From positions 1-43,383 of IMG/VR virus record IMGVR_UViG_3300030620_000002: a DNA stretch of 43,383 bases. One strand, 5' to 3'. The translations under genes were made by a program, and so were the position numbers. This document shows positions 19,878 through 35,538 of the stretch, one piece after another. This DNA comes from a virus. Numbering within the stretch: the first letter of the stretch is position 1; the number at the start of each line of letters is the position of its first letter. The notes under the pieces are model-generated. The model saw nothing but the letters and a program-made list of their open reading frames with translations. It was not told the origin of the DNA and ran no database searches.

Positions 19878-21068
19878 ATGAAGGACAGGATCACCCTCAA
19901 GGCGCTCGCGGAGCTGCAGCTCGGCCAGACGGTCTGGGACACGGAGCAGCTCGGGTTCGGGGCCCGCCGGCGGAAGGGCGGGGTCTTCTTCGTCTTCAAG
20001 GTGCAGCGGCGGGGGAAGGCGGACTGGGTCCCCCTCGGGCGCCTCGGCGACGTCACCCTCGACGACGCCCGCAAGGCGGCCGCCAGGGAGCGAGGCATCG
20101 TCGCCCTGGGCGGCCGCCCCGGCGCCTGGCGCCGCACCCCCACCCTGAAGCACTTCGGGGCCCGCTACCTGCGGGAGGCGGCGTCGGCCACGAAGGCCCT
20201 GTCCTACGCCTGGACCGAGCGCGCGCTGCGTCTCCACCTCTACCCCGCGCTCGGGCACCTCCGGCTCGACGAGATCACGGCGCATGACGTGACGCGGCTC
20301 AAGGATCGCTACGCGACGCGGAAGGGGGCGTTCAACAACGCCCGCCGGGCCCTGAGCATGCTCTACGCGAAGGCGATCGAGTGGCGCGAGCTCTCCGCGG
20401 ACTGGCCGTCGCCGTGCCGCTACGTCGCCTCCTATGCGATGCCGAAGCACGAGCGCTACCTGTCGCAGAAGGAGCTCGCGGGCCTCGGCGCCGCGCTGGC
20501 CACCCACGCGCAGCAGGGCCCGGCCGCGGCCCTGGTGGTGGCGGCCGTCCGGCTGATGATCTTCACCGGTGCTCGTCGTGACGAGGTCCGCTTCCTTCGC
20601 TGGGGCGAGGTGGGCCCCACCGCCCTCCACCTGAGTGACACCGCCGCGGGCCCGCGATCGGGCCTGAAGACGGGCGCGAAGCCGATCAGCCTGAACCCGC
20701 CTGCGGCCCAGCTCCTGGCCGCGCTCGAGCGCCGCGGCGACGAGGACCTGGTCTTCGAGTCACCGCTCCGGCCGGGTCACCCCGTGGCGCTGCACCAGGC
20801 CTGGGACCAGATCCGGCGCGCGGCCGGCCTGAAGGATGTCCGCCTGCACGACCTCCGCCACTCGTTCGCCTCGGTCGCCGTGGCAACGGGCCACTCGCTC
20901 TACGTCACCGGCGCCCTCCTCGGCCACCGCAACTCCAGGACCACGGAGCGGTACGCCCACCTGAGCGCGGACCCGCTCGCGGCCGCCAGCGCCGCGGTCG
21001 CCCGCCGGATCCAGACCGCCCTCGAGGCAGGCGAGGGGGAGGCGAAGGCGAAGGGCGGGGCGAGCTAG
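19878..21068 (+). CDS. int: Tyrosine recombinase/integrase, P4-like (DUF4102-type N-terminus)
   Basis: AGGAGAAGG RBS. The N-terminus reads LKALAELQLGQTVWDTEQLGFGARRRKGGVFFVFKVQRRGK. The catalytic motifs are TGARRDEV, HDLRHSFAS, LGHRNSRTTERYAHL. Confidence 0.93.
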   Translation: MKDRITLKALAELQLGQTVWDTEQLGFGARRRKGGVFFVFKVQRRGKADWVPLGRLGDVTLDDARKAAARERGIVALGGRPGAWRRTPTLKHFGARYLREAASATKALSYAWTERALRLHLYPALGHLRLDEITAHDVTRLKDRYATRKGAFNNARRALSMLYAKAIEWRELSADWPSPCRYVASYAMPKHERYLSQKELAGLGAALATHAQQGPAAALVVAAVRLMIFTGARRDEVRFLRWGEVGPTALHLSDTAAGPRSGLKTGAKPISLNPPAAQLLAALERRGDEDLVFESPLRPGHPVALHQAWDQIRRAAGLKDVRLHDLRHSFASVAVATGHSLYVTGALLGHRNSRTTERYAHLSADPLAAASAAVARRIQTALEAGEGEAKAKGGAS

Positions 21069-21073
21069 TGTAG

Positions 21074-22435: not shown

Positions 22436-22502
22436 GGGAGACCCACCCCCTCAGGTGGCCGGCACCCGCTCGCCCGCCGCGGAGGGCGCGGCCTCAGTGT
22501 GT

Positions 22503-22814
22503 TCACCGTTCGCACAGCTTCAGCGCGCGCTCGATCAGCGGGCCGATGTTCTTTCGGGTTCCTGGTATCGAAGGGTTGTGTGCCCACACGGGCTCGATCC
22601 CGGGATAGCCGTGGTGTTTCGCCAGCCCGTTGAGCGCGTACCGCCGGCCGTCGACTAGCGCCACCGCGACCGGGATGCCTTTGCTCTGGGGATCGCACTC
22701 CAGCCGCGCCGAAGGGCTCGTGAGGGGCCACGCGGCGCCCAGTCCGGAGCTTGTCACGAGGTGCCCTTCTACATCCTCGGCGGGTGGACTCATGAACGAG
22801 TCGATCCCCTGCAA
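22503..22814 (-). CDS. Hypothetical protein (103 aa as called; true N-terminus probably further upstream)
   Basis: The TTG-start ORF has ordinary composition (VALVDGRRYALNGLAKHHGYPGIEPVW). The in-frame upstream codons encode a hydrophobic segment but lack an ATG, GTG or TTG start. Confidence 0.5.
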   Translation of the reverse strand: MQGIDSFMSPPAEDVEGHLVTSSGLGAAWPLTSPSARLECDPQSKGIPVAVALVDGRRYALNGLAKHHGYPGIEPVWAHNPSIPGTRKNIGPLIERALKLCER

Positions 22815-22873
22815 GGCCGCCCAGAAGAGAGGGCCGCCCCAAAACCAGAGTCCGACACCCAGAGCGAGGCTTC

Positions 22874-22947
22874 ACGGGACCTCTCCTCTGGAGGGTAACG
22901 CACGAGGGGCGCGATCCGAACAGAACGCCGGCCCCGGGAGGAACCTG
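22874..22947 (-). repeat. Conserved upstream element, copy B
   Basis: acgggacctct...aacgcacgaggggcgcgatccgaacagaacgccggccccgggaggaacctg is a diverged copy of 21816-21880. Confidence 0.5.
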
Positions 22948-22950
22948 CGG

Positions 22951-22977
22951 GCACCCTGACGCCATACGTCAGGGTGC
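22951..22977. terminator. Perfect 11-bp stem hairpin gcaccctgacg-ccata-cgtcagggtgc (possible terminator or operator)
   Basis: Read directly. It lies 39 nt downstream of the minus-strand RHH gene stop. There is no U-tract on either strand. Confidence 0.4.
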
Positions 22978-23015
22978 GGCCGACAGTCTCCCGTGCCCGT
23001 CCGCCCTCCCGGGAC

Positions 23016-23198
23016 CTAACCGCCGCGCTTCCTGAGGTACTCGTCGATTGCTTCAGTCACGACCGCTGCCCGCTTTCGTCGGAGATCGTGCTCGACCTCG
23101 TAGTGGCCGAGGCGCTTCGCGATCGCTGCCGGGATGCGGACGTTGAGCTGCTGCCGCGGGGCCGCCCCGGCTTCCCGGGGTTTCTTTGGTCGAGCCAT
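23016..23198 (-). CDS. Ribbon-helix-helix (CopG/Arc-like) DNA-binding protein, candidate repressor
   Basis: MARPKKPREAGAAPRQQLNVRIPAAIAKRLGHYEVEHDLRRKRAAVVTEAIDEYLRK follows the RHH pattern. It is divergent from the early operon. Confidence 0.7.
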   Translation of the reverse strand: MARPKKPREAGAAPRQQLNVRIPAAIAKRLGHYEVEHDLRRKRAAVVTEAIDEYLRKRGG

Positions 23199-23205
23199 CG
23201 AAGCA

Positions 23206-23234
23206 AGCCTAGCAGCGGCCCATGGTGATAGCAA
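23206..23234 (-). promoter_or_regulatory. Promoter TTGCTA-17-TAGGCT for the RHH gene, positioned for a leaderless mRNA
   Basis: The reverse complement reads TTGCTAtcaccatgggccgctgcTAGGCTtgcttcgATG, with 7 nt between the -10 box and the ATG. Confidence 0.45.
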
Positions 23235-23245
23235 GGGGTTTATCC

Positions 23246-23274
23246 TTGACGGTCGCCTGATAGCAAGCTAGCAT
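23246..23274 (+). promoter_or_regulatory. Early promoter TTGACG-17-TAGCAT, positioned for a leaderless or near-leaderless mRNA
   Basis: TTGACGgtcgcctgatagcaagcTAGCATctagggaaATG, with 8 nt between the -10 box and the ATG at 23283. Confidence 0.55.
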
Positions 23275-23282
23275 CTAGGGAA

Positions 23283-23840
23283 ATGGCTGCGGAAGGCATC
23301 GAGATCCAGAGGGTCGTGAACGCACTGCTGCGCTGGCGCGGCAACGTGAAGGCGGCCGCGGACGAGCTGGGGATCCGGCGGAAGAGCCTCTATGAGCGCA
23401 TCCAGCGCGCCGGCATCGACCTCCAGGCGATCCGCCATGCGTCCCCCTCCGTGAGCGAGTTCCGGGGCATGCCCCGTATGCCCCCCGTGCCCCGGGACAT
23501 GTCCCGTGAGGGGGTGACCCGTAGTGTCCCGAAATCTGCTAGTGCCCCGTACCAAAGCACGCCTCAGGGGCCTACCGTGACGGGCATGCAGCAGGCCACC
23601 GCGGAACCACCCTTCGCACCGTCGCACAGCAAGCCGCGACTCCCGCGCGTCCTGCCCCGCGACCAGGAGCGGCTCCGCGCCGCCAAGATCGAGATCATCG
23701 CCCGCTTCCGCATCGAGACCGACGAGCAGGCGATCCACGACCAGTTCATGGCGGAGGCGTTCGACGGCTGGCTCGAGGACAAGCTGGCGGTCGAGGGTGC
23801 CCGTCCGGCGGAGCGGCCGCAGCGGAAGAAGGCCCCGTGA
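23283..23840 (+). CDS. Fis-type HTH (HTH_8) regulator, first gene of the early operon (185 aa)
   Basis: VNALLRWRGNVKAAADELGIRRKSLYERIQRAGIDL is a Fis/NtrC-type HTH. Confidence 0.7.
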   Translation: MAAEGIEIQRVVNALLRWRGNVKAAADELGIRRKSLYERIQRAGIDLQAIRHASPSVSEFRGMPRMPPVPRDMSREGVTRSVPKSASAPYQSTPQGPTVTGMQQATAEPPFAPSHSKPRLPRVLPRDQERLRAAKIEIIARFRIETDEQAIHDQFMAEAFDGWLEDKLAVEGARPAERPQRKKAP

Positions 23841-24220
23841 CGAGCCTCCAGGCGCAGCGGGCCGAGGACAGGACCGGCGACCCGACGGGCGCGCCGCGCC
23901 GCCCCGCCGAGCTCCGGGCCCTGGCGCACGATCATCTCGTCGAGGCGCGCCGGTACGAGATGGAGGCGCAGGAGCTGTTCGCCGAAGCCGCGCGGCTGGA
24001 GAGTAGCCAGGCGCTCGAGGCTCGGCTCTCGCCCGACGATGCGGCGGCGTTCCTGCGCGTGAAGCGGGGGACGCTCAACGCCTGGCGCCGGAACGGGCGT
24101 GGGCCGCGCTACGTCATGGTGGGGACGAAGATCACCTACCTCCGGGCCGACCTGGAGAGCTGGCTCCAGAGCCGCCGGATCGGCAGCACGGCCGAGCGGC
24201 GCGACCTGGGGGCGCAGTGA
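23837..24220 (+). CDS. Excisionase/MerR-type HTH (HTH_17) protein
   Basis: LSPDDAAAFLRVKRGTLNAWRRNGRGPRYVMVGTKITYLRADLESWL matches the Xis/AlpA-type pattern. GTGA coupling to the upstream gene. Confidence 0.65.
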   Translation: MTSLQAQRAEDRTGDPTGAPRRPAELRALAHDHLVEARRYEMEAQELFAEAARLESSQALEARLSPDDAAAFLRVKRGTLNAWRRNGRGPRYVMVGTKITYLRADLESWLQSRRIGSTAERRDLGAQ

Positions 24221-24471
24221 GCCAACCCCTGGGCGACCTGTTCCGCGCGCCGCAGCCCACGCCACTGCAGAAGGCGATCGGCGAGGCGGCGACGACGCTC
24301 AGCGTCCTGGGGCCCCTGACGGGCGCCGTGTACCACTCCACGCCGGCGCTCCAGTTGCGCATCCTCGACGAGATCCAGAACGCGCTGGTGAAGGCCGCCG
24401 GGCAGATCGCCGAGGCGCGGTGCGTCGTCGAGGCGGGGATCGAGCGCGAGCTCGCGGGGCCGTCCCGGTGA
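24217..24471 (+). CDS. Hypothetical protein (84 aa)
   Basis: GTG start coupled to the upstream stop. Ordinary composition. Confidence 0.5.
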   Translation: MSQPLGDLFRAPQPTPLQKAIGEAATTLSVLGPLTGAVYHSTPALQLRILDEIQNALVKAAGQIAEARCVVEAGIERELAGPSR

Positions 24472-24929
24472 GGGCCTGGCTTCGAGGGCTCGCGCGCCGG
24501 GCGCTGTTCGCGGGCCTGCCGGAAGACCCGGCTGTTGTTGCTCGCGGGTGGCCTCCGCTGCCGAAGCCCCTGCCCCCACCGCCTCCGGCGCCGCCGTCGC
24601 CGCGCTCGCATGCCGCCGGGCCGGTGCTCGCGCGGGCCTGGGCTCGCCGGCGGGGGCCGCTCATGCTCGACGTGGGGCGTCTCCTGGGCTCGTGTGGAGG
24701 TCGCGTTCCGATGGAGGGCGCCGAGGTGCTGGCGCGGCGCGCCTTCTACGCCGGCGCCCGGGCGGCGCTGGAGGTGATCGACGGCACGGTCGAGGACCTC
24801 CCGGTGGACGCGGAACCGTCCGACGAGCAGGTCGCCGCAGCCGAGGCGCGGTTCGAGCGCATGCTCGAGGAGCTCGGCGAGGAGATCGACGCAACCGGAG
24901 GTGGGCCGGAGGAGGAGACCTCCGGATGA
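24468..24929 (+). CDS. Hypothetical protein (153 aa), paralog-like to the next gene
   Basis: GTG 24468 lies in the frame of track ORF 24099..24929. It contains ARRAFYAGARAALEVI and an acidic tail. Confidence 0.5.
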   Translation: MRAWLRGLARRALFAGLPEDPAVVARGWPPLPKPLPPPPPAPPSPRSHAAGPVLARAWARRRGPLMLDVGRLLGSCGGRVPMEGAEVLARRAFYAGARAALEVIDGTVEDLPVDAEPSDEQVAAAEARFERMLEELGEEIDATGGGPEEETSG

Positions 24930-25339
24930 GCCGGAAGGCCGCCGCGCCGCCGCCGGGCCCGTTCGGGCGCGAGTGGGAGGCCTACCGCTGGCGGTGCGTC
25001 CCGGCCGAAGCCGGCCCCGGCCAGGTCGGCGCGGCCCAGCGGGCGTTCTACAGCGGCGCCGCCGCGGTGCTGCGGCAGTTGCTCGCGGCGCCGACCCAGG
25101 CCGCGATCACGCAGCTCACCCAGGAGGCGGCCGAGCACGCCGCGATGCCCGAGCCGCAGGATCAGGACCCCGACGCGTGGCTGGGCCCGCCGGTCGTGTC
25201 CGTGCACACGAGCGGCGGGGACCCCGGACGGTTGCGCCCTGTCGACGCGCCCGCGACCTGCGAGCGAGAGCCCGGAACCTTCCACTTCCAGGCGTCCTCA
25301 ACTCCCAGGCGTGCGACGCCCGAGAGCGAGGAGGACTAG
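24926..25339 (+). CDS. Hypothetical protein (137 aa)
   Basis: ATGA coupling to the upstream gene. AQRAFYSGAAAVLRQLL parallels the motif in the preceding gene. Confidence 0.5.
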   Translation: MSRKAAAPPPGPFGREWEAYRWRCVPAEAGPGQVGAAQRAFYSGAAAVLRQLLAAPTQAAITQLTQEAAEHAAMPEPQDQDPDAWLGPPVVSVHTSGGDPGRLRPVDAPATCEREPGTFHFQASSTPRRATPESEED

Positions 25340-25353
25340 TTGGGCTGGCGCAC

Positions 25354-25656
25354 GTGAAGTGCAACCTGACGAAGCTGCCCGGCGGTGCGACCGCGATCGT
25401 GTGCTCGAGCGGAGCGCGGTCGAAGCCGAAGCCATGCTCGTCGTGCGGTCGGCCGGCGGACCGCCTGTGCGATTTCCCGGTCAAGCGCGCCGGTCGGCGG
25501 ACGACGTGCGATCGGCCGATCTGTCGGCGCTGCGCTCGGCCGATCTCGGGCGACCGTGACCTGTGCCAGCCGCACGGGCGGCTGTGGGATGGCGAGACGG
25601 ACCGGCCCCGCGTCGGCCCGGGCCTCGACGCGACCGGAGGTGGCCCGGAGCAGTAG
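25354..25656 (+). CDS. Cys-rich zinc-finger-like small protein (~100 aa)
   Basis: GTG 25354 lies in the frame of track ORF 24901..25656. AIVCSSG...CSSCGRPADRLCDFPV...TTCDRPICRRCA...DLCQPH. Confidence 0.55.
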   Translation: MKCNLTKLPGGATAIVCSSGARSKPKPCSSCGRPADRLCDFPVKRAGRRTTCDRPICRRCARPISGDRDLCQPHGRLWDGETDRPRVGPGLDATGGGPEQ

Positions 25657-25709
25657 ACCGGCCGCCCGACTTTCGAACCCCGTAGGAGGAACAGGATGAT
25701 TGCGCCAGC
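25621..25709 (+). repeat. Gene-boundary repeat R1 (3' end of the Cys-rich gene, intergenic RBS and first codons of the next gene)
   Basis: About 90% identical to 27626-27719, including ...gaccggaggtggccc..gcagTAGaccggcc..gact.tcgaaccc.gtAGGAGGaacaggATG..tgcgccagc. Confidence 0.85.
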
Positions 25710-25872
25710 CGAACAGCGAAGCTCTGCCGAGGCGGCCCCGGAGCGGATCCGGACCGTCTGCTGCGTCTGCGGGGAGCTGATCCAGGACGGGGCGTCGCCG
25801 GCGGGGCTCGTGTCCCACGGGGTCCACCCGGGCGAGTGCGCGCGCCGGATGCTCGCCGGTGAGGCCGTATGA
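25696..25872 (+). CDS. Small Cys-rich protein (58 aa; below the ORF-track size cutoff)
   Basis: AGGAGGA RBS 5 nt upstream. MIAPAEQRSSAEAAPERIRTVCCVCGELIQDG...HGVHPGEC. ATGA coupling to the next gene. Confidence 0.55.
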   Translation: MIAPAEQRSSAEAAPERIRTVCCVCGELIQDGASPAGLVSHGVHPGECARRMLAGEAV

Positions 25873-26177
25873 GCGGCGGCCGCCGGAAGGCCCTGATGGC
25901 GGCGTACACCGCCAAGCACGGCGCGCCGCCGACCGGGCACTACGTCGAGCACGGCCGCCGGCACCCCTCGGAGCGCCGGCCGGCGAAGAAGGCCTACCTG
26001 GCGCGGCGCCGCGGCGCAGTGCCGATCCCCGAGCCGTGGGGCCGCCTGGCCGCCCGTGAGCGGCGCCGCCGGGCCCGGGCGGCGCGCCGCGGCGCGCGAC
26101 TGAAGGGTGGGCCCCGCCACCTGACCGCGGCCGAGCTGCGCGCGGCGCGCGCGGCCCTCCTCGGAGAGCAGCCGTGA
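25869..26177 (+). CDS. Highly basic hypothetical protein (102 aa)
   Basis: Coupled at both ends. Arg/Lys-rich; ends AALLGEQP. Confidence 0.5.
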   Translation: MSGGRRKALMAAYTAKHGAPPTGHYVEHGRRHPSERRPAKKAYLARRRGAVPIPEPWGRLAARERRRRARAARRGARLKGGPRHLTAAELRAARAALLGEQP

Positions 26178-26485
26178 TGAAGCCTCCCCAGCACCTGATC
26201 GACAAGATGCTCGCCGACGGCGAGATCGGGATCCTGTCTTCCCTGGTCGTCCTCGGCGCGGCGCTCGCGGTGCAGCGTGGCTCGGGGGCGGCGCTGGAGG
26301 GCGTGCAGACCGCAGGGGGCGAGCCGATCCCACCTGGCCTCGAGGCGCGGATGAAGGAAGCCCATGCGGCGATGGTCGAGGAGTTCCAGGCTGTGAGCGC
26401 CGAGGAGCTGGATCACTGCATCGCGCTGAGCACCGCGCACCTGCGAGCGGCGGGCTACCAGTGGACCTCCGGGCGGGACAACTGA
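26174..26485 (+). CDS. Hypothetical protein (103 aa) with one hydrophobic segment
   Basis: GTGATG coupling. Contains EIGILSSLVVLGAALAV. Confidence 0.5.
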   Translation: MMKPPQHLIDKMLADGEIGILSSLVVLGAALAVQRGSGAALEGVQTAGGEPIPPGLEARMKEAHAAMVEEFQAVSAEELDHCIALSTAHLRAAGYQWTSGRDN

Positions 26486-26991
26486 TGGCGACCGAGGAGC
26501 TGCTCGAGAGCGAGGTCGTCTGGGGGTGGGCATCCCACGCCGAGAGCGAGGTCTGGTCCGGCGCCTATTCCCTCGAGGCGACCGTGGAGCGCGCGATCGA
26601 GGAGGCGCGCAGCACCGGTGCCTGGGACGTCTACATCGCCGCCGGACAGTACCCCTCCACGGGCGCTATCGCCGCGACGGCGATTCGCCTCGACGACGTG
26701 CTCGAGCGCATGGAAGAGGACGCCGCCGACCAGGGGATCTACGCCGCCGACGAGCTGCTGTTCGAGCCCTCACCGGCCGCCGCCGAGAAGCTGGAGGAGG
26801 CACTGCGGGCCTGGGGAGCAGACGCGGTGACGGCCTTCGACCGCTGGACTCGCACCGGTGAGCCCGTACGCATCGTGCTCGTGAGAGCGGACTGCGGCGA
26901 TTGCGGCGTCGGGGTCAAGGTCGACGAGGACGGGTGCTGCGCCCAATGCGGGCGTGACGCCGAGATCGTCGTGCCCGGGAGCAGCTCGTGA
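26485..26991 (+). CDS. Acidic protein with C-terminal zinc ribbon (168 aa)
   Basis: ATG 26485 overlaps the upstream TGA. The body is very Asp/Glu-rich. The C-terminus reads CGDCGVGVKVDEDGCCAQCG. Confidence 0.55.
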   Translation: MATEELLESEVVWGWASHAESEVWSGAYSLEATVERAIEEARSTGAWDVYIAAGQYPSTGAIAATAIRLDDVLERMEEDAADQGIYAADELLFEPSPAAAEKLEEALRAWGADAVTAFDRWTRTGEPVRIVLVRADCGDCGVGVKVDEDGCCAQCGRDAEIVVPGSSS

Positions 26992-27365
26992 AGCAGGCGG
27001 GGCTCGACTGGGACCTCGACCCGGCGGAGTGGACCGCCGCGGCGCCGCCGGCGCCTCGCGCGCCCGCGCCACCGCCCACGGAGACGGCCGTCCTCGACGA
27101 GCGCGGCCGCGTCCGGCTCGGGACCGTCCTCGAGGCGCTCCCCGGCACGGCGTACCCGTACACCGCGGCCTGTGGCGCGTGCGGCGCCCGGCAGTCTGGC
27201 TGGGCGTCGGTCTGGAGCGCCGAGATGTGGGTCCGGCACCACCGCCGGACGTGTGCGGGAGCCGAGCAAGCCATGGAGGGCCGGCCCGCTGGCGCCGCCG
27301 CCAGCGCTCCTCCAACCAGAGTCCCCGCCGGCCGGGGCGGGGAACCCCCGCGGGGGGGAGCATGA
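26988..27365 (+). CDS. Duplicated-family protein A1 (125 aa, CGACG motif)
   Basis: The N-terminal ~85 aa is nearly identical to 28570..28923 (DWDLDPAEWTAAAPPAPRAPAPPPTETAVLDERGR...YPYTAACGACG..QSGW.SVWSAEMWVRHHR). Confidence 0.6.
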   Translation: MKQAGLDWDLDPAEWTAAAPPAPRAPAPPPTETAVLDERGRVRLGTVLEALPGTAYPYTAACGACGARQSGWASVWSAEMWVRHHRRTCAGAEQAMEGRPAGAAASAPPTRVPAGRGGEPPRGGA

Positions 27366-27508
27366 CCTGGCGCGCCTTGCAGATCCTGTCGGCGTCGGGG
27401 CTCGCGTTCGTCGCGGCCCTGTGCCTCTCGTGGTGGATCCGCGACGAGCGGCGCCGTCCTGAGCCGGTGGGTCGGGTGCGGCCGGGGTGGCGGCCCCGGC
27501 GGCCGTGA
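27362..27508 (+). CDS. Duplicated-family small membrane protein B1 (48 aa)
   Basis: MTWRALQILSASGLAFVAALCLSWWIRDERRRPEPVGRVRPGWRPRRP. Paralog at 28415..28573. ATGA coupling. Confidence 0.5.
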   Translation: MTWRALQILSASGLAFVAALCLSWWIRDERRRPEPVGRVRPGWRPRRP

Positions 27509-27744
27509 AGCAGTCCGCCCTCGACCTCGGCCACCACCCGGGCGCAGCGCGGGGGCGAGGAGCCGCCGCCGCTCGCGCCCTGCCCCGATTGCAGCCAGGA
27601 GCTCCAGTCTTTCGGCGCCGGCGGAGGCCTCGATCTCGACGCGACCGGAGGTGGCCCCGGGCAGTAGACCGGCCCGCCGACTTCGAACCCAGTAGGAGGA
27701 ACAGGATGCCTGCGCCAGCGGCCCTCCTGGGAGAGCAGCCATGA
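27505..27744 (+). pseudogene. Recombination scar: A-type start, then the tail of the Cys-rich gene, repeat R2 and a 12-codon mini-ORF
   Basis: GTGAAGCAGTCCGCCCTCGAC mimics the A1/A2 starts. 27626-27719 is a copy of 25621-25709. 27718-27744 is a copy of 26151-26177. The reading frame is Arg-rich and looks non-functional. Confidence 0.45.
27626..27719 (+). repeat. Gene-boundary repeat R2 (copy of 25621-25709)
   Basis: Direct comparison by eye, with small indels. Confidence 0.85.
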
Positions 27745-28418
27745 CGGCGCGCGCGCGGACCCCGGAGGACCTGGAGACGCCGGTGATCGCCGCCGCCCTG
27801 CGCCGCCTCGTCGGCGCCCACCACACCTACGGCGGCCTCTGGTCCGTCCCCCACCCCTCGACAGGGGGCGGCGTGTGGGCGGTCGGGGCGGACGGCTGGT
27901 GCTTCGCAGCTCTGCGCGTCTGGGGCCCGCCGCCCTTCCCGCTGGAGCCGGAGTCGACTCGTGGGGCTCGGACCAGGGCGGTGGAGCGGTGGCTCTCCCA
28001 GGATCAGGAGGGGCATCCCGTCGACGGCGAGGCCCTCCTGGCCTGGTGCGGCGCCGTCTGCGAGGACTGCGAGGACACCCGGGTGCAGCCGTGTGAATGC
28101 GAGGGCACCGGGGAGATCACGTGTACCTGCTCCAGGTGCGACGACGAGCACGAGACGACGTGCCCGGACTGCGCCGGCGACGGGCGCGCGACCTGCGACT
28201 CTTGCAGCCACCCCCTCTACGGGGTCCTGCTGGGTCGGCTGTGGGACCGGCACCTGATCCGCCTGGTCCTGACGGCGATCGGGACGGATGGGCTCAGCGT
28301 CTCCCACGACCGCGAGTTCGACGCCCTGGTCCTGCGAGCCCCCGGCCGGCTGGGTGTGGTGATGGGGATGCGGGGCGAGATCGAAGCGCACTACCCGCGG
28401 TTCGAGGCCCTCCCATGA
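27741..28418 (+). CDS. Protein with a DnaJ-type CxxCxGxG-like Cys cluster (225 aa)
   Basis: CEDCEDTRVQPCECEGTGEITCTCSRCDDEHETTCPDCAGDGRATCDSC. Confidence 0.6.
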   Translation: MTARARTPEDLETPVIAAALRRLVGAHHTYGGLWSVPHPSTGGGVWAVGADGWCFAALRVWGPPPFPLEPESTRGARTRAVERWLSQDQEGHPVDGEALLAWCGAVCEDCEDTRVQPCECEGTGEITCTCSRCDDEHETTCPDCAGDGRATCDSCSHPLYGVLLGRLWDRHLIRLVLTAIGTDGLSVSHDREFDALVLRAPGRLGVVMGMRGEIEAHYPRFEALP

Positions 28419-28573
28419 CCTGGCGCGCCCTCCAGATCCTGTCAGCGTCGGGTCTCGCGCTCTTCGGGGCCGTGTGTCTCGCGCGCTGGATCCGGGACGT
28501 GAAGAGCCGACCGGAGCCGGTGGAGCGGGTGCGGGCCGGGTGGCGGCCGCGGCGGCTGCTGGAGCGGCGGTGA
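28415..28573 (+). CDS. Duplicated-family small membrane protein B2 (52 aa)
   Basis: MTWRALQILSASGLALFGAVCLARWIRDVKSRPEPVERVRAGWRPRR. ATGA coupling. Confidence 0.5.
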   Translation: MTWRALQILSASGLALFGAVCLARWIRDVKSRPEPVERVRAGWRPRRLLERR

Positions 28574-28923
28574 AGCAAGGCGCCCTCGACTGGGACCTCG
28601 ACCCGGCGGAGTGGACCGCCGCGGCGCCGCCGGCGCCTCGCGCGCCCGCACCACCGCCCACGGAGACGGCCGTCCTCGACGAGCGCGGCCGCGCCCGGAT
28701 CGGCACCGTCATCGAGGCGCTCCCCGGCACGGCGTACCCGTACACCGCGGCCTGCGGCGCGTGCGGCACCCGCCAGTCCGGCTGGTCGTCGGTCTGGAGC
28801 GCCGAGATGTGGGTCCGCCACCACCGGACGGCCGAGGATCTCGACCTGGTGGAGGCGCTGCGCGCGCTCGCGGCCGAGGATCGCCTCGACGCCTTCGAGG
28901 CGGACGCTGGGGGCGCCCGGTGA
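28570..28923 (+). CDS. Duplicated-family protein A2 (117 aa)
   Basis: GTG 28570 overlaps the B2 stop. About 250 nt is roughly 93% identical to A1, followed by a different C-terminus. Confidence 0.6.
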   Translation: MKQGALDWDLDPAEWTAAAPPAPRAPAPPPTETAVLDERGRARIGTVIEALPGTAYPYTAACGACGTRQSGWSSVWSAEMWVRHHRTAEDLDLVEALRALAAEDRLDAFEADAGGAR

Positions 28924-29252
28924 CGCCGCTCACCGAGGCCGGCGGGCGCCGGCGTTGCCGCTACTGCGGCCGGCCGATCCGCTTCGCGTTGCTCCCGGAC
29001 GGTCGCCAGGTCCCGTACGACCCGGAGCCCAACCCGGCGGGCAGCCTGGTCTTCGAGCGCGCGCGGACGGAGTCGGGCGACGAGCTGGCGCTCCGCCGGG
29101 CCGTGTTCGCCGCGCTCGGCGAGCGGGCGGGGGAGACGCGCTACCTGCCCCACCGGAGCAGCTGCCCGGCTCGAGCCGTGCGCCGGCGGCGCCGCGGCGG
29201 GCGGCACTCGCCTGGCCGCCGCCAGCGCCATCTCTTCGGGGGGACCCCTTGA
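28920..29252 (+). CDS. Zinc-ribbon-like hypothetical protein (110 aa)
   Basis: GTG 28920 is coupled to the upstream stop. CRYCGRPIRFALLPDGRQVPYDPEP ... SSCPA. Confidence 0.5.
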   Translation: MTPLTEAGGRRRCRYCGRPIRFALLPDGRQVPYDPEPNPAGSLVFERARTESGDELALRRAVFAALGERAGETRYLPHRSSCPARAVRRRRRGGRHSPGRRQRHLFGGTP

Positions 29253-29409
29253 GCGCCCGCCTGCTCCGCTTTCCGCCCGGCTCGGCGCCGCGCCCCCTCG
29301 TCGTGCCCGGTCGCGTCGGTCGCCTCCGTCGCTTCGCGTTCGCCCGGATGCGCCTCGAGGTCTGGCTCCGGGTGCGGCTGTACCGGTACCGCCGGTGGAG
29401 GAGGCACTT

Positions 29410-29634
29410 GTGATCGGCGAGATCTTCGACGCGGCGGCCGCGCGGCTGATCTGGGGGATGTGGGGGGTGTCGCTGATCGCCGGCGCCGCCGGCGGAGCAG
29501 TCCTCCTCGGCGCCGGCTGGGTCTGGGGCTACCTCTCGCGCTGCCGGGACGAGCGCGAGGCGCAGCTGAGCGACGAGTGGCGTGCGGAGCGCGCCCGCCA
29601 GGAGCAGCAAGGGGCCAAGGAGGACTCCGCGTGA
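29410..29634 (+). CDS. Small membrane protein (74 aa)
   Basis: GTG 29410. Hydrophobic LIWGMWGVSLIAGAAGGAVLLGAGWVWGYL followed by a charged tail. Confidence 0.45.
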   Translation: MIGEIFDAAAARLIWGMWGVSLIAGAAGGAVLLGAGWVWGYLSRCRDEREAQLSDEWRAERARQEQQGAKEDSA

Positions 29635-30266
29635 GCCTCTACGACCGCTACCACGAGCTGCACGGGCTGCAGGAGGCGCTCCGCGAGAGCGAGAGGCCGG
29701 AGAAGGTCCGCGTCTGCATCGAGCACCGGGTGACGTGCTCGGTCCGGGACGACGCGGTGGTGTGCCCCGTGGGGTCCCACGAGCTCGAGGAGCGTGAGTG
29801 GGCGGTCGCGAACGCCCCGGGGCCAGGCACTACGACGGCGGCACCGCCGCCGCCACACAGGAGGGAGGCGCCGATGGCGCAGCACGGCGGGAAGAGACAG
29901 TCGTCGGTCGTCGACCGGAGATTCTTCCGGGACGCCGCCGGCAACAGGCTGTACCTGCGGCTGAAACAGCAGGAGGACGGGGCCATGGTGATCGCCGTGC
30001 AGCACCTCCCCAAGGGGGGCGGCAACCGGAGCGGGGTGCTGGGGCACTTCCGGCCCGGCGACGACCCCGCCCTGGCGGATCGCCAGGCCAAGGCGCGCTT
30101 CATCGAGCTCATCGGGCAGACGCTCCAGAAAGGCTGGACCGCGTCGGCCGGGAGGCGCCCCGGGGGCCTACAGGAGATTCCCGAGGCTCAGGGCGCCGCG
30201 GCCGCCGCCGCGGCGCCGAAGCGCAGCACGGCACGCCCGCGGCCGTACGCCGGGAGGGGACGTTGA
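29631..30266 (+). CDS. Hypothetical protein (211 aa), C-terminal half weakly WGR-like
   Basis: GTGA coupling. RRFFRDAAGNRLYLRLKQQEDGAMVIAVQHLPKGGGNRSGVLGHF...AKARFIELIGQTLQKGW. Confidence 0.5.
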   Translation: MSLYDRYHELHGLQEALRESERPEKVRVCIEHRVTCSVRDDAVVCPVGSHELEEREWAVANAPGPGTTTAAPPPPHRREAPMAQHGGKRQSSVVDRRFFRDAAGNRLYLRLKQQEDGAMVIAVQHLPKGGGNRSGVLGHFRPGDDPALADRQAKARFIELIGQTLQKGWTASAGRRPGGLQEIPEAQGAAAAAAAPKRSTARPRPYAGRGR

Positions 30267-31465
30267 CCGCCGCGGCGCCGGCGCTGCAGGACCTGAAGCT
30301 CGACGTCCTCGTCGAGTCACCGTCCAACCCCCGCAAGACCTGGGGCGACCTGGCCGAGCTCGTGGCGAGCATCCGCGAGAAGGGCGTGCTCCAGCCGATC
30401 CTGGCCCGGCCGCTCCCGGGCCCCCGCGAGAAGGGGTCCGCCACCCACGAGGTGGTCTTCGGGCACCGGCGTCTCCGCGCCGCGCGGAAAGCGGGGTTAG
30501 CCACGATCCCCGCGATCGTCCGGTCCCTCGACGACCTCGCCGCCCTCGAGGCACAGGTGATCGAGAACGGCCAACGAGAGGACATCCATCCCCTCGAGGA
30601 GGCCCTCGGGATGGCGAAGAAGCGGGCCGAGGCGGAAGCGGCCGGCCGCCAGGTCCTCACGGGCAAGGCGGCGAAGGCGGCGATCGAGAGCCGCGTCAAG
30701 TTCGTGAAGCCCGGGGACCACTGCTGGGAGGACCCGAAGGGGCAGCGCACATGGGGGAAGCTGCTCGGGAAGAAAGGCCTCGAGGAACACGGGGTGCTCG
30801 CGGAGGGGCCCGACGGCGACCTGGTGGAGCTCGTCCCCGCGGAGGCGGCGCGCGCCGCCCTCAAGGATGTGCTGAAGGCATCGGGTCTCTCGCCGGCGCG
30901 CTCGAGGGCGTCGAGCCCCTCGTCGATCGCGGCGTCCCAGCGGCGCGAGCAGGCGAAGCGTGACCTGGAGCGGCGTGTTCGCGGGCGGATCCTCGACGAG
31001 ATCGTTCCCAGGGTGAAGTCACTCGACCGCGAGGACATGGTGCTCGTCCTCGTCTCGATGTTCCGCCGGCTCTGGCACGACGACTACAAGGTGCCGCTCT
31101 CGAAGCGCTGGGGCCTCCGAACGGAGACCGAGAAGGGCACGAAGGCCTTCGCCGCCCGCCTCGACCTTGACGCGGCTCTCGATCGCCGCCTTCGCCGCCT
31201 TGCCCGTGAGGACTTGGTCGACCGGCCCGAGGCCGCGCCCCGCCTCCCGGCCGTGCTCGCAGCGCGCATCCTGGAGGTCGCCCTCTTCACCGAGACACAC
31301 CCGCTGGCCCACCACACGCCGAAGGCTGACGCGCTGCTCGAGGCGGCCCAGCGCTACGGTATCGACGCTGCGGCGATCCGCCGCGAGGAGACCGCCGCCG
31401 CGGCCCGGCCGAAGAAGAAGGCCCCGAAGAAGACGCGCGGGAAGAAGGCGGCTCGCCGTGGGTGA
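30263..31465 (+). CDS. ParB/Srx-like N-terminal domain protein (400 aa)
   Basis: TTG 30263 is coupled to the upstream stop. SPSNPRKTWGDLAELVASIREKGVLQPILARP...VVFGHRRLRAARKAGLATIPAIV matches ParB boxes. Basic C-terminal tail. Confidence 0.8.
   Translation: MTAAAPALQDLKLDVLVESPSNPRKTWGDLAELVASIREKGVLQPILARPLPGPREKGSATHEVVFGHRRLRAARKAGLATIPAIVRSLDDLAALEAQVIENGQREDIHPLEEALGMAKKRAEAEAAGRQVLTGKAAKAAIESRVKFVKPGDHCWEDPKGQRTWGKLLGKKGLEEHGVLAEGPDGDLVELVPAEAARAALKDVLKASGLSPARSRASSPSSIAASQRREQAKRDLERRVRGRILDEIVPRVKSLDREDMVLVLVSMFRRLWHDDYKVPLSKRWGLRTETEKGTKAFAARLDLDAALDRRLRRLAREDLVDRPEAAPRLPAVLAARILEVALFTETHPLAHHTPKADALLEAAQRYGIDAAAIRREETAAAARPKKKAPKKTRGKKAARRG
30653..30700. repeat. Left arm of a 48-bp perfect inverted repeat inside the ParB-like gene
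   Basis: gtcctcacgggcaaggcggcgaaggcggcgatcgagagccgcgtcaag is the exact reverse complement of 31166-31213. Confidence 0.95.
31166..31213. repeat. Right arm of the 48-bp perfect inverted repeat
   Basis: cttgacgcggctctcgatcgccgccttcgccgccttgcccgtgaggac. The spacer 30701-31165 is 465 bp (155 codons). Confidence 0.95.
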
Positions 31466-32006
31466 GGACCGGCTGCAGCTGCGCGCCCTCAGCCTCACTC
31501 AGCCGTGGGCCTCGCTGGTCGCCCTCGGCGCCAAGCGCATCGAGACGCGTTCCTGGGCCACCGCCTACCGAGGCCCCCTCGCGATCCACGCGTCGTGGCA
31601 CTTCCCGCCACACGCGCGGCGGCTGTGCGAGGAGGAGCCCTTCCTCCGCCTCCTCGAGGAGGCGGGCCTCGACGAGGACACCCTCCCTCGCCGGGCCGTG
31701 CTCGGCGTCTGTCGACTGCTGGGCTGCCATCTCATCACCGAGCTCGAGGCGCAGCGCATTGCCCACCTCGGGGCCGGTGAAGAGCTCCACCTGGGCGTCC
31801 GCTTCGGCGCCGCCGTCGTCACCCGCGTCGAGGCCGCGCTCGGCGACTTCAGCGCACGCCGCTACGCCTGGACGCTGAGCGAGCCGCGGCTCTTCAGCCG
31901 GCCGTCACCGGCTTCCGGCCGTCTGGGCGTCTGGCGGTGGACTGCGCCGGTCAACTTCCGCGATCTCGAGCCCGAGGTCGCGGCCCAACTCCAGGAGGGG
32001 CGGTGA
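31458..32006 (+). CDS. ASCH (PUA-like) domain protein
   Basis: LRALSLTQPWASLVALGAKRIETRSWATAYRGPLAIHAS is the ASCH signature. GTG 31458 overlaps the end of the ParB-like gene. Confidence 0.75.
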   Translation: MGEDRLQLRALSLTQPWASLVALGAKRIETRSWATAYRGPLAIHASWHFPPHARRLCEEEPFLRLLEEAGLDEDTLPRRAVLGVCRLLGCHLITELEAQRIAHLGAGEELHLGVRFGAAVVTRVEAALGDFSARRYAWTLSEPRLFSRPSPASGRLGVWRWTAPVNFRDLEPEVAAQLQEGR

Positions 32007-32266
32007 GCGAGAGGAAGGCGCCGCAGCAGCGCGCGCTGGAAATCGTCCGATACGAGGTCGAGCGGAGCGGGGGCACACCCGGGGAGGTCACCCTCTCGAC
32101 GCGGCTGTGCGACCTGGGGCTCGACTCGCTCGCTCTACTCGAGCTCCAGATCTCCCTCGAGGACGAGTTCGACGTCGAGCTCCTCGAGGAGATGTTAGCC
32201 GGAGGGACGGTCGGCGAGCTGATCATCCAGGCCGTGAGGCGAGAGCAGGGCCAAGAGGGCCAGTGA
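32003..32266 (+). CDS. Acyl/peptidyl carrier protein-like (PP-binding) protein (87 aa)
   Basis: GTGA coupling. TRLCDLGLDSLALLELQISLEDEFDVELLEEMLAGGTVGELI carries the DSL phosphopantetheine-attachment motif in its usual helix-II context. Confidence 0.75.
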   Translation: MSERKAPQQRALEIVRYEVERSGGTPGEVTLSTRLCDLGLDSLALLELQISLEDEFDVELLEEMLAGGTVGELIIQAVRREQGQEGQ

Positions 32267-32300
32267 CCGAGCCGCATCACCAAACGAAGGCCAACTGAGC

Positions 32301-32831
32301 GTGCCCGCCTGGCTGCAGTCGATCGTCGACTTCTTCGGCCGCTTCCGCCTCTGGTACGTCGTCATGCCCTGGGAGCGCGCAGTGCGCGTGCGCCTCGGCA
32401 ACCGCGTCGTCAAGCGCGGCCCCGGCTTCCACTGGAAGCTGCCTCTCCTCGACCGCGTGTTCATCCAGAACGTCCGCCTACACGTGGTCAGCACCTGCAG
32501 CCAGGTCCTCGAGGACGGCGATGGACGAACCGTGGCCGTCGTCGCGTGCATCGGCTTCAGCATCGACGACATCTTGCGCGTGTACACCAGCGTGCAGCAT
32601 CTCGACGAGGCGCTCTACTCCTGGGCCTCCGCCGCCCTGGCGGATCACATCACGAAGGGTCGTGCGGCCGCCGAAGAGGCGGTGGCGCGGAGTCTCGAAG
32701 AGCAGGCGACCAGGTGGGGGATACGCATCGAGTTCTTTCGCTTGACCGACTACACACGGGTCCGTGCGTTCCGGCTGCTGCAAGGAGACCGCTGGTCGCG
32801 CTCAGAAATCGACCTGGGGAAGGGCCTATGA
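32301..32831 (+). CDS. SPFH/Band-7 (stomatin/prohibitin-like) domain protein (176 aa)
   Basis: VVMPWERAVRVRLGNRVVKRGPGFHWKLPLLDRVFIQNVRLHVVSTCSQVLEDGDGRTVAVVACIGFSIDD follows the SPFH pattern (P..E.AV....G.....GPG.H...P..D.V....R). Confidence 0.75.
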   Translation: MPAWLQSIVDFFGRFRLWYVVMPWERAVRVRLGNRVVKRGPGFHWKLPLLDRVFIQNVRLHVVSTCSQVLEDGDGRTVAVVACIGFSIDDILRVYTSVQHLDEALYSWASAALADHITKGRAAAEEAVARSLEEQATRWGIRIEFFRLTDYTRVRAFRLLQGDRWSRSEIDLGKGL

Positions 32832-33829
32832 CGGAGCCCCACCACCAGCTGCGCGACGTCCTCCGCCGCGGCCGCGCCCGCCTGCCGGCGGAGCTGCAGC
32901 CGGCTGGGGCGCTCCTCGTCCTGCGCGAGCTGACCGAGTGGCGCGACCTGGACCCGTCAAGCCGGCAGCTCGAGGAGGCCACGGGCCAGCACCGGAGCCG
33001 GATCCGCCGCTACCTCGACCAGGCCGTGGCCTGCGGGCTCCTCGTCGTCCTCCAGGAGGCATCGGCGGGCGGTCGAGGGCGCCGCGGCCGCGGCCGCCGC
33101 TACGGACTCGGTCCGCTCGCTCTCCAGGCCCTGCCAGAAAGCGGGGACGCCAGGTCCCCTGTTTCTGGCGCTGCCCCGCCTGAAAGTGGGGACGCCACGT
33201 CCCCTGTTTCCGAGAAAGCGGGGACCAAAGTGGGGACCAAAGTGGGGACCAAAGTGGGGACGCCACGTCCCCCTCACCTACACCTACACCGTACGGATAC
33301 ACCCCCCCCTACCCCCCCTCGGGACGAGGGGGGGCCAGTCGAGCTCCGAATCGCAGCCAGGCGACGACGGCCACGGCACCGCGACGAGCGGGATGCCCTC
33401 GAGGCGTACGGTCAGGAGCTCGGGCTCACCCTCGACACCGAGCTGCGGGACCGGATCCGCGACGCGCTGCGCGACGGCTGGGCGGTCGATCGGATCCGGT
33501 CGAGCCTCGAGCGCCGCGCCGGGCGGCCGCGGTCGCCGCCGGCGCCGGAGCGGCCGCTACCGACGCGCGAGGCGCTGCGGCTGTGGGAGGGCGCCGTCTG
33601 CTGGCTCGAGTCCCGAGTCCCGCGCCGGTCGTGGCTCACCTGGCTCCGAGCCGGCACCTGGGGCTACCGCCTCGACGGCGAGCGCCTGGTCGTCGGCGTC
33701 GCCACCCCCGCACACCAGCGCTGGCTCGCCGGCCACGTCGAGTGGCGGCCGCTCTACCTCGAGGCGCTCGCCGCCGGCGGCCACGCGGGGCTCGAGGTCC
33801 TCTTCGAGACGGGACTCCCAGGAGGTTGA
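32828..33829 (+). CDS. Replication initiator candidate: N-terminal wHTH, iteron-encoding linker, DnaA-N-like C-terminus
   Basis: ATGA coupling. The N-terminus has LEEATGQHRSRIRRYLDQAVACGLL. The C-terminus WEGAVCWLESRVPRRSWLTWLRAGTWGYRLDGERLVVGVATPAHQRWLAGHVEWRPLYLEAL resembles the DnaA domain I pattern. Confidence 0.6.
   Translation: MTEPHHQLRDVLRRGRARLPAELQPAGALLVLRELTEWRDLDPSSRQLEEATGQHRSRIRRYLDQAVACGLLVVLQEASAGGRGRRGRGRRYGLGPLALQALPESGDARSPVSGAAPPESGDATSPVSEKAGTKVGTKVGTKVGTPRPPHLHLHRTDTPPPTPPRDEGGPVELRIAARRRRPRHRDERDALEAYGQELGLTLDTELRDRIRDALRDGWAVDRIRSSLERRAGRPRSPPAPERPLPTREALRLWEGAVCWLESRVPRRSWLTWLRAGTWGYRLDGERLVVGVATPAHQRWLAGHVEWRPLYLEALAAGGHAGLEVLFETGLPGG
33135..33277. repeat. Candidate origin of replication: six AAAG(C/T)GGGGAC iterons plus three GGGGACGCCA(C/G)GTCCCC palindromes
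   Basis: Iterons start at 33138, 33183, 33215, 33227, 33239 and 33251; the last four are in exact 12-bp phase. Inverted GTCCCC partners are at 33154, 33199 and 33267. Confidence 0.6.
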
Positions 33830-33831
33830 CG

Positions 33832-35538
33832 ATGCTGAAGGTGGGCGCCGGGTTCCAGCTCGCGATCGAGCACGTCGAGGACGTCGTCGCGATCATCGGC
33901 CGCCGCGGCCGCGGGAAGACGTCGACCGCGGCCGTGCTCGTCGAGGAGCTCCACCGCGCGCGGCACCGGTTCTGCGTCGCGGATCCAGTCGGGGTCTGGC
34001 ACGGGCTCAAGTCCTCGAGGGACGGGAAGTCCCCCGGCCTCCCGGCGATCGTGATGGGCGGCGATCACGGGGACGTCCCCCTCGAGGCGACGGCGGGGCG
34101 GGTGATCGCCGACTTCGTAGCGACCTCGGACAGCTCCGTCGTCCTCGACTTCCTGCACTTCCGCAAGGCCCACATGAGCCGCTTCATGACCGACTTCCTC
34201 GAGGAGCTCTACACCAAGAGCCGGCGGGCGCTCCACCTGGTGCTTGACGAGGCCGACAAGTTCATCCCGCAGCGCGTGGACGGCAGCAACGCGCAGCTGG
34301 TCGGCGCCGCCGAGGACGTCGTCAAGATGGGCCGGGCCCGGGGGTTGCTGCCCATCCTCATCACGCAGCGGCCAGCCTCGCTCAACAAGAACGCGCTCTC
34401 GCAGGCGGGCCTGCTGATCGCGCATGGCCTGACCTCGCCCCACGACCGCAAGGCCGTCGACCTCTGGGTGAGGGAGAACGCCACCGAGGAGCAGCGCAAG
34501 GCCTTCCACGCCTCGCTCGCCGGGCTCGACCGGGGCGTCGCGTGGTTCTGGCAGCCGGAGGCCGAGATCTTCCGCCAGGTGTCCGTGCGGGAGCGCGCCA
34601 CGTTCGACTCGTCGTCGACGCCGAAGGCCGGGGGCCATCGCGCCGCGCCGAAGGTCGTCGCGAAGGTCGACCTGGAGCAGCTCGAGAAGCGGATCCGGTC
34701 GACCATCGAGGAGCGGAAGGCGAACGACCCGAAGGAGCTGCGGCGCAGGATCGGCGAGCTCGAGCGCCAACTGGCGAAGCCGCCCACGCTGGCGCCGGCG
34801 ACGGTGGAGCGGGTCGAGGTCCCCATCCTGGAGGCGCCCACGGTGAAGCGCCTCGAGGCCGCGCTCGCGAAGGTGGACCGGCAGGCCGAGCGCCTCACCG
34901 CCGACGTCCAGCGCCTGGTCGACCTACAGGCTGACGTCAAGGCCCGCCAGGCGGAGATCCGGTCAGCCCTGATCACGCGCTCGGAGCGCGCACGACCGGC
35001 CGCGGCGCCGCCGCGCGTCTCGACGACGCCAGCGCCGCCTCGCCCTGCCCCGCGGCCGGCGCAGGGATCCGTCGGGGGCGGCCTGCAGCGGATCCTCGTC
35101 GCCCTCGCGCAGCGGCCGCAGGGACTGACGATCAAGCAGGTCGCGCTACGCGCGGGGCTGTCCAGCCGGAGCGGCACCTTCTCGACGTACGTCAGCCGCT
35201 GCCGCCAGCAGGGCTGGATCGCGGGCGGCAGCAAGGAGGTCCTCCGGATCACGGATGAGGGCCTCGAGGCGCAGGGGCCCTTCGAGCCCCTGCCCACGGG
35301 TGCCGGGCTGCTCGCCTACTGGTCGAGCCAACTCGGGGGTGGCGCTGCCAGGCTCCTCGAGGCGGTCGCTGCCGCCTACCCTGCCGAGCTGAGCAACGAC
35401 GAGGCCGCGGCCGCCGCGGGCCTCTCTGGGCGCAGCGGCACCTTCTCGACGTACGTGAGCCGCCTCCGCGGCCTGCAGCTGATCGACGGCGCGCGCGGGA
35501 GCGGCCGCCTGCGCGCGTCCGATGAGCTCTTCGAGTGA
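33832..35538 (+). CDS. HerA/FtsK-like P-loop ATPase (DUF87-type) with two C-terminal wHTH-like repeats (568 aa)
   Basis: Walker A is IIGRRGRGKTS and Walker B is HLVLDEADKF. LPILITQRPASLNKNALSQAGLLIAHGLTS also fits the family. A coiled-coil lies in the middle. The repeat GLS.RSGTFSTYVSR.R occurs twice at the C-terminus. Confidence 0.75.
   Translation: MLKVGAGFQLAIEHVEDVVAIIGRRGRGKTSTAAVLVEELHRARHRFCVADPVGVWHGLKSSRDGKSPGLPAIVMGGDHGDVPLEATAGRVIADFVATSDSSVVLDFLHFRKAHMSRFMTDFLEELYTKSRRALHLVLDEADKFIPQRVDGSNAQLVGAAEDVVKMGRARGLLPILITQRPASLNKNALSQAGLLIAHGLTSPHDRKAVDLWVRENATEEQRKAFHASLAGLDRGVAWFWQPEAEIFRQVSVRERATFDSSSTPKAGGHRAAPKVVAKVDLEQLEKRIRSTIEERKANDPKELRRRIGELERQLAKPPTLAPATVERVEVPILEAPTVKRLEAALAKVDRQAERLTADVQRLVDLQADVKARQAEIRSALITRSERARPAAAPPRVSTTPAPPRPAPRPAQGSVGGGLQRILVALAQRPQGLTIKQVALRAGLSSRSGTFSTYVSRCRQQGWIAGGSKEVLRITDEGLEAQGPFEPLPTGAGLLAYWSSQLGGGAARLLEAVAAAYPAELSNDEAAAAAGLSGRSGTFSTYVSRLRGLQLIDGARGSGRLRASDELFE

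Follow-up and report, generated by a model that had tools for sequence, protein, structure and literature searches.

A perfect 48-nucleotide inverted repeat within a phage ParB-like gene is probably a young inverted duplication

RESULTS

A perfect inverted repeat inside one coding sequence

The ParB-like gene of the phage genome IMGVR_UViG_3300030620_000002 (IMG/VR; 43,383 nucleotides [nt], 72% G+C, analyzed over its full length and called the window from here on) contains a perfect 48-nt inverted repeat, which we interpret, at a probability of roughly 60%, as a young inverted duplication produced by a template switch inside a gene that had already been remodelled. The two arms are reverse complements of each other at 48 of 48 positions (Table 1), and the match beyond them is imperfect, with 51 of 52 positions matching when the arms are lengthened by 4 nt outward and 54 of 56 when 4 nt are added inward as well. 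A repeat search reports imperfect extended arms of 69 nt with 88% complementarity; the inward flank matches at 11 of 17 positions (empirical P = 0.005), and the outward flank shows one mismatch followed by three matches (P = 0.03). Both arms are codon-aligned and lie entirely inside one coding sequence (CDS), and the spacer between them measures 465 nt, or 155 codons, a multiple of three. Direct comparison thus bears out what a preliminary description of this DNA had reported on the exact 48-nt reverse complement, on the 51 of 52 matches in the lengthened arms and on a 465-bp in-frame spacer within a single open reading frame (ORF). The same description took the ORF to be genuinely coding throughout, and this agrees with a frame plot of G+C content at third codon positions (GC3), which stays at ~0.9 in the + frame across the arms as well as the spacer.

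Chance does not account for the repeat, in agreement with the preliminary description. The runner-up among exact inverted repeats in the window is 21 nt long, and a 33-nt core searched with up to 3 mismatches matches at the two arms only, with 0 occurrences in 100 shuffles. From the empirical per-base complementarity of codon-phased antisense pairs of this genome (0.31), our own arithmetic gives ~1e-15 expected runs of 48 consecutive matches per window.

With respect to sequence content, the arm peptides given earlier are correct, namely VLTGKAAKAAIESRVK for the left arm and LDAALDRRLRRLARED for the right arm. The tandem 9-mer (AAGGCGGCG x2) described for the arm is present at arm offset 13, its left-arm copy (30665-30682) encoding KAAKAA, while the hexamer CGATCG, described as central, sits at arm offset 29-34. 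Beyond CGATCG the arm is not self-palindromic, and its sequence is found nowhere else in the genome besides its two copies. At the position of the left-arm tandem 9-mer, the related locus L007 (see below) reads AAGGAGGCC GAGGCTGTG (KEAEAV). The tandem arrangement hints that the donor arm underwent a minor slippage or conversion event before its copying.

The repeat is missing from related loci, and the right arm is derived

Closer relatives of the window gene, which might date the repeat, were sought in several collections. INPHARED phages gave one weak 177-nt match by blastn, relatives in an IMG/VR protein search were at no more than 50% identity, and GTDB genomes yielded Acidobacteriota, Sorangium and other metagenome-assembled genomes at no more than 52% identity; the exact 38-nt core of the arm has no match in IMG/VR. 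The search also covered JGI metagenome contigs and 5.8 billion protein clusters, and only two loci, L008 and L007, proved informative. L007 is a Logan locus encoding the protein P0002; it is the closest relative besides L008 and the sole outgroup near enough for DNA comparison, its nucleotide identity to the window gene being 81% in the first 347 nt and 66-73% in the C-terminal half. The preliminary description had suggested looking for the arms in related phages, and when this is done no comparable repeat is found in L007 and no exact inverted repeat of at least 30 nt in 26 other, more distant related loci, indicating that the repeat arose after the split from L007.

L008 is the ENA contig k141_2444888 (ERZ27256807), a MEGAHIT-style contig of 43,880 bp that represents the same phage and holds the second member of the protein's 90% cluster. 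It is 99.88% identical to window positions 20263-33016 (~12.7 kb); its ParB-like gene shows no differences, and the two arms in it are likewise perfect and point the same way. All 15 differences between the window and L008 are clustered at 29406-29445, inside an ORF of 79 amino acids (aa), and at 32894-32995, at the start of the ORF 32828-33829; these patches are either strain-level microdiversity hot spots or alternative paths through assembly bubbles. The L008 contig appears to wrap around by ~624 nt.

Alignment to L007 assigns different histories to the two arms. The left arm aligns without gaps to its orthologous segment, nt 952-999 of the L007 gene, on the family motif GRxVLTGKEA, and the spacer follows on the same strand, collinear with L007 gene nt ~1000-1392. 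The right arm lies within nt 853-984 of the window gene, a stretch of 132 nt that does not match its 69-nt L007 counterpart at the DNA level, is 63 nt longer and falls in a region that is a variable linker in the family alignment. Within this stretch, an in-frame insertion of ~81 nt is delimited upstream by KAFAARL, equivalent to QAFASTL in P0002, and downstream by PAVLAARILEV, equivalent to KPAELAARLMEV, with the BLASTN alignment to L007 picking up again at gene nt 985 (window 31247); the sequence flanking the right arm is collinear and in frame with the homologous gene on both sides. A donor for 31214-31262 was not found elsewhere in the window. Two other assignments were tried and rejected. 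Reading "ALD" of the right arm as the ortholog of "ALD" in P0002 gives, by manual count, ~44% nucleotide identity over 48 nt, compared with ~64% for KAFAARL/QAFASTL, and a miniature inverted-repeat transposable element or insertion sequence with 48-bp terminal repeats is excluded, the spacer being orthologous, collinear coding sequence.

Codon usage also differs between the arms. All 16 left-arm codons end in G or C, the preferred choice (0 of 16 AT-ending), and 6 of the 16 right-arm codons are rare T-ending ones (CTT three times, GCT, GAT and CGT), against 7% A or T at third positions genome-wide (P = 5e-4), each of them making up 2-9% of its synonymous set. The T's of these codons complement the codon-initial A's of AAG, ACG, ATC and AGC in the left arm. 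Given where the insertion lies and which codons it uses, the right arm looks like an antisense copy of the left arm that has yet to adapt, and these sequence comparisons make the direction of copying clear, with the left arm ancestral and the right arm derived.

TABLE 1 Coordinates of the inverted repeat and associated features in the window
Feature	Position	Strand	Remarks
Tyrosine integrase	19878..21068	+	Lambda-type, with Arm-DNA-binding domain (Pfam); sole recombinase detected
ParB-like gene	30263..31465	+	400 aa; ParB_N domain at aa 8-102 only
In-frame deletion junction	30608..30619	+	Codons 117/118, EEALG/MAKKR; 39 nt upstream of the left arm
Extended imperfect left arm	30649..30717	+	Core plus 4 nt outward and 17 nt inward
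Left arm (donor)	30653..30700	+	Codons 131-146, VLTGKAAKAAIESRVK; ancestral coding segment
Spacer	30701..31165	+	Codons 147-301; ancestral orientation; coding frame unbroken
Extended imperfect right arm	31149..31217	+	Inner 17 nt ancestral, part of KAFAARLD
Right arm (derived inverted copy)	31166..31213	+	Codons 302-317, LDAALDRRLRRLARED
Lineage-specific in-frame insertion, ~81 nt	31166..31246	+	Right arm plus 33 nt (31214-31246); boundaries approximate

The interrupted gene is a remodelled member of the ParB family

We place the start of the ParB-like gene at a TTG codon preceded by GGGAGGGG, which overlaps the upstream stop as TTGA. ParB_N is the only domain detected with Pfam, PHROGs and NCBIfam (PF02195 at 79.6 bits, cut-off 26.3; TIGR00180 at 102 bits, cut-off 58.45), and its motifs GHRRLRAA and ENGQRED are intact. 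An AlphaFold2 model has a mean predicted local distance difference test score (pLDDT) of 83.6, with Foldseek matches in the PDB to ParB, Noc and KorB that cover the N-terminal domain only. In this model, the left-arm peptide forms a strand and a helix within a confident domain (pLDDT ~95), and the right-arm peptide takes up the end of a helix (295-315), after which comes a loop of low confidence.

Of the 684 homologs listed, the best 120 are nearly all 500-690 aa long and combine ParB_N with HTH_ParB. In a 40-member alignment with the top 39 homologs, the window protein alone is missing ~185 aa, comprising HTH_ParB and a conserved CxxCPKRTG...CTDPxC module that is Cys-rich and zinc-ribbon-like, with the intact ParB_N CTPase-type domain being joined directly to the C-terminal domains of the family by an in-frame deletion. 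The deletion is based on BLASTP and BLASTN comparison with P0002 and L007, on the alignment with the 39 homologs and on Pfam searches of P0002 and of a further protein, P0009. A link between the deletion junction and the repeat was considered and dropped as speculative, no shared signature being found. The ParB-like protein is a remodelled member of its family, and the remodelling probably preceded the duplication. It resembles the proteins of ParB/Spo0J-parS systems and the ParB-like CTPases KorB and Noc in its ParB_N fold with GxxRxxA and ENxQRxD motifs, and it is unlike ParB/Spo0J-parS systems in that the window protein is devoid of HTH_ParB, the arms are not 16-bp parS-type palindromes and no ParA is detected among the ORFs scanned.

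A template switch as the probable origin of the right arm

The most likely course of events is that, during replication or repair of the temperate phage, a nascent strand switched template. Using the complementary strand, it would have copied codons 131-146 of the ParB-like gene (~48-56 nt) in reverse and then switched back, leaving an in-frame insertion of ~81 nt at a distance of 465 nt downstream, in the variable linker of the same gene, where the antisense copy reads as an amphipathic helix that would have been tolerated. Microhomology between GTCG and CGAC at the inner junction possibly primed the switch. At this junction, ancestral ...CTCGAC closes the right side and TTCG opens the left, with TTCG and CGAC agreeing at 3 of 4 positions; the G found in L007 at the ortholog of T30701 would give a perfect 4-nt GTCG/CGAC. 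Survival of such an insertion would need only a length divisible by 3, because stops are rare on the in-phase antisense strand of a high-G+C gene, and the whole flipped 155-codon spacer holds 1 stop. The arms would be identical because the duplication is recent. The preliminary description had argued that perfect identity implies either selection or recent copying or conversion; that alternative holds, and the evidence favors a recent event. The template-switch mechanism itself is read from its product, and the repeat presumably has no selected role.

An exact inverted copy with an intact donor and an outgroup that lacks the copy is the signature of template switching, a process that produces exact copies of up to ~90-125 nt, creates perfect inverted repeats or hairpins in one step and alters coding sequence (10.1101/2021.11.26.470150; PMC5941160; PMC8604942; PMC8794818). 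The present case is like the short-range template-switch mutations studied as quasi-palindrome correction (Ripley) and in the four-point model (Loytynoja & Goldman) in that an exact reverse complement lies nearby, the donor is intact and ancestral, the copy is missing from the outgroup and a perfect repeat capable of forming a hairpin would result from a single step; such mutations can likewise add or recode protein sequence (10.1101/2021.11.26.470150; PMC8604942; PMC8794818; PMC5941160). It is unlike them in its net gain of ~81 nt, including 33 nt of unknown origin, which goes beyond mere quasi-palindrome conversion, in a mechanism that is deduced here from the product, and in its dimensions, a copy of 48-56 nt at 465 nt being at the long end of the catalogue.

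Several observations weigh against this origin. The distance of ~465 nt between donor and copy exceeds that of most catalogued short-range events, and no donor was identified in the window for the remaining 33 nt of the insertion. The repeat is present in one lineage only, represented by two near-identical genomes, so that youth and strong constraint predict the same identity between the arms. The sharp change from a perfect 48-nt core to imperfect flanks (2 mismatches beside the core; the 11/17 inward match) could also result from homogenisation that is still under way or from selection acting on the core. Finally, the evidence on orientation consists of two assembled contigs.

Alternative explanations

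The geometry of the repeat also invites a reading as an intragenic inverton, in which the arms are recombination sites and inversion of the spacer toggles the protein between two states; we regard this as unlikely. The agent would be a site-specific recombinase of the host or phage, or RecA-type homologous recombination across the 48 bp, and the states, put forward with the same reserve, would be the full-length protein of 400 aa and a 194-aa product with ParB_N only, possibly accompanied by a separate C-terminal fragment. Such a switch fits with a perfect repeat enclosed by a single CDS and with a spacer length divisible by 3, and recombination that keeps the arms identical could leave a perfect core between imperfect flanks. 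When the spacer is flipped in silico, the 194-aa product ends in a 48-aa tail and a stop and leaves an ORF reading into the native C-terminus; the truncation is as foreseen in the preliminary description, the tail being 48 aa rather than 47 aa. The flip thereby agrees with intragenic invertons of the "premature stop" class, whose invertases are often unlinked and unidentified (10.1101/2023.03.11.532203). The phage does encode a tyrosine recombinase, but this is an integrase of the lambda type that has an arm-binding domain, and further copies of the repeat arm are lacking, e.g., at a candidate attP. Neither a serine invertase nor a second tyrosine recombinase was found among the scanned ORFs of the 43-kb genome (Pfam; L008 gene list), some small ORFs lying outside the scan. 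Moreover, the closest relative L007 lacks the repeat, both assemblies show the same orientation and the right arm resembles a raw antisense copy. The flipped reading frame has the composition of sense position 1 at its third positions and no GC3 coding signature, and the flipped product is absent from the protein matches listed (5.8 billion clusters), among which its 146 identical residues would rank second. The recombinase-invertible segment proposed earlier is therefore not supported, with no invertase found, no repeat in the closest relative and a flipped frame that does not look coding. We consider it rather improbable that the gene harbors a working "premature-stop" intragenic inverton of a temperate phage, operated by a host invertase, by the integrase or by recombination between the arms; occasional homologous recombination across 48 perfect bp could nevertheless invert the segment and truncate the protein.

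A selected cis-acting nucleic acid element, either an mRNA duplex that serves as an RNase III substrate or blocks translation or a pair of protein-binding sites of parS or operator type, is very unlikely in our view. The RNA version, in which a 48-bp duplex closes a 465-nt loop and tunes expression of the ParB-like gene and the genes downstream, is just as unlikely. The full arm-arm helix is present in the predicted minimum free energy (MFE) and centroid structures of the mRNA, with an MFE of -363 kcal/mol against -312 +/- 8 kcal/mol for shuffles (z = -6.3), but such folding follows trivially from any perfect inverted repeat; in addition, the whole window gives no match to an Rfam family, and the relatives are without the repeat. 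Of the RNase III target suggested in the preliminary description, the predicted fold thus supports the formation of a duplex, with no evidence of selection for it, and we take the predicted 48-bp duplex to be a side effect of physics, not design. As for binding sites, parB genes often have parS sites within them or close by. Against this, the parS-recognising domain HTH_ParB has been lost from the ParB-like protein, the arm is no palindrome and exists in two copies only, and a ParA-like partner was not recognised in the ORFs scanned, some small ORFs lying outside the scan. A cognate HTH-bearing ParB and a short palindromic multi-copy site with ParA, the features of a parS-type ParABS system, are thus not found here, and the embedded parS-like sites once envisaged are disfavored by the lost HTH_ParB and by a non-palindromic arm that occurs nowhere else in the genome. 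An assembly or amplification artefact, i.e., a fold-back chimera or one of the kind made by multiple displacement amplification (MDA) that entered the consensus, seems extremely improbable. Inverted chimeras are a known MDA artefact, the window is a metagenome contig with a 127-bp terminal overlap typical of a de Bruijn assembler, and the window and L008 assemblies may share a read set. However, the same structure recurs base for base in L008, which comes from another assembler and another archive and has 15 clustered single-nucleotide differences elsewhere, and the collinear flanks and kept frame would need two precise switches rather than one chimeric join. An assembler artefact is unlikely because L008 has the identical structure and the flanks are collinear with the homologous gene, which also disfavors the chimera that the preliminary description had listed. 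Graph collapse at the repeat would not be expected, because 48 nt is shorter than the k-mers of both assemblers (127 and 141).

Genome context

Positions 1-127 and 43257-43383 of the window form an exact direct repeat of 127 nt, showing that the genome was assembled circularly; the repeat is the overlap from circular de Bruijn assembly, and the genome unit is 43,256 bp. The window is a lambda-like temperate phage, encoding a lambda-family portal, a capsid and a cement protein, a Nu1-like small terminase, a GH108 endolysin and an excisionase-like protein in addition to the integrase (Table 1). We recognised no single-strand annealing or other recombination proteins in the early region with PHROGs and Pfam, and found no promoter or terminator associated with the arms in 29000-33000.

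Directly upstream of the ParB-like gene, and translationally coupled to it through the TTGA overlap, lies a gene for a 211-aa protein (29631-30266) with no Pfam or PHROG match. Downstream (31458-32831) follow, in this order, genes for an ASCH-domain protein, an acyl-carrier-protein-like (PP-binding) protein and an SPFH/Band-7 protein. A gene resembling that of an acyl carrier protein is unusual within a phage replication or maintenance module, and in L007 (1850-3563) a PP-binding gene is likewise located a few ORFs downstream of the ParB-like gene. Two other repeats were observed in the window. A paralogous duplication (27003-27235 and 28585-28817; ~93% identity over 268 nt, with exact blocks of at most 65 nt) spans two small early genes of unknown function (~26988-27365 and ~28570-28923). 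The ORF 32828-33829, immediately upstream of a gene for a HerA/AAA-like ATPase (33826-35538), contains a tandem repeat with a 12-nt unit (AAAGTGGGGACC x3.9; 33215-33261) and, on either side of it, the copies of a direct repeat of 22 nt (33183-33204 and 33251-33272). This tandem repeat is iteron-like and a candidate replication origin inside an initiator gene.

DISCUSSION

The repeat shares part of its layout with classical invertible DNA. As in the Mu G/Gin, P1 C/Cin, e14 P/Pin and Salmonella Hin/hix systems, it brackets the 3' coding part of a gene, and its inversion would alter the C-terminus. The Gin, Cin, Pin and Hin systems have an adjacent serine invertase gene and short crossover sites (~26-34 bp), and Gin, Cin and Pin act on tail-fibre genes and have a second C-terminal cassette, truly coding, on the opposite strand. 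The window gene is unlike them in every one of these features: no serine invertase is adjacent and no resolvase or invertase domain was found in the ORFs scanned, the neighbors being the 211-aa protein and the ASCH, acyl-carrier-protein-like and SPFH genes; no alternative coding cassette is present, a stop occurring after 48 codons; and the gene is not a tail-fibre gene. Another parallel is with the "premature stop" class of intragenic invertons of Chanin et al., which likewise have a repeat pair within one CDS and an inversion that splits the gene into two ORFs; it is unlike that class in that no invertase was found here and the repeat is not kept in the nearest relative. The arms are also of a different size, 48 nt here versus the 11-nt repeat mutated in thiC (10.1101/2023.03.11.532203).

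If, against our expectation, the inversion were real, intragenic invertons would extend to a maintenance-module gene of a phage, which would switch between a full-length ParB-like protein of CTPase fold and a truncated form with ParB_N only. This would create heterogeneity in a replication- or maintenance-module function and constitute a phage-encoded switch in a non-structural gene.

The repeat adds one more case to a kind of mutation already described and opens no new biological question. If the reading as a young inverted duplication holds, it is a clean case from nature in which one mutational step in a phage created a long perfect inverted repeat, added an in-frame helix drawn from the gene's own antisense strand and left a substrate for later inversion. 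It would then be a cautionary case for the prediction of invertons and parS sites from inverted repeats alone, and it would illustrate protein innovation via template switching.

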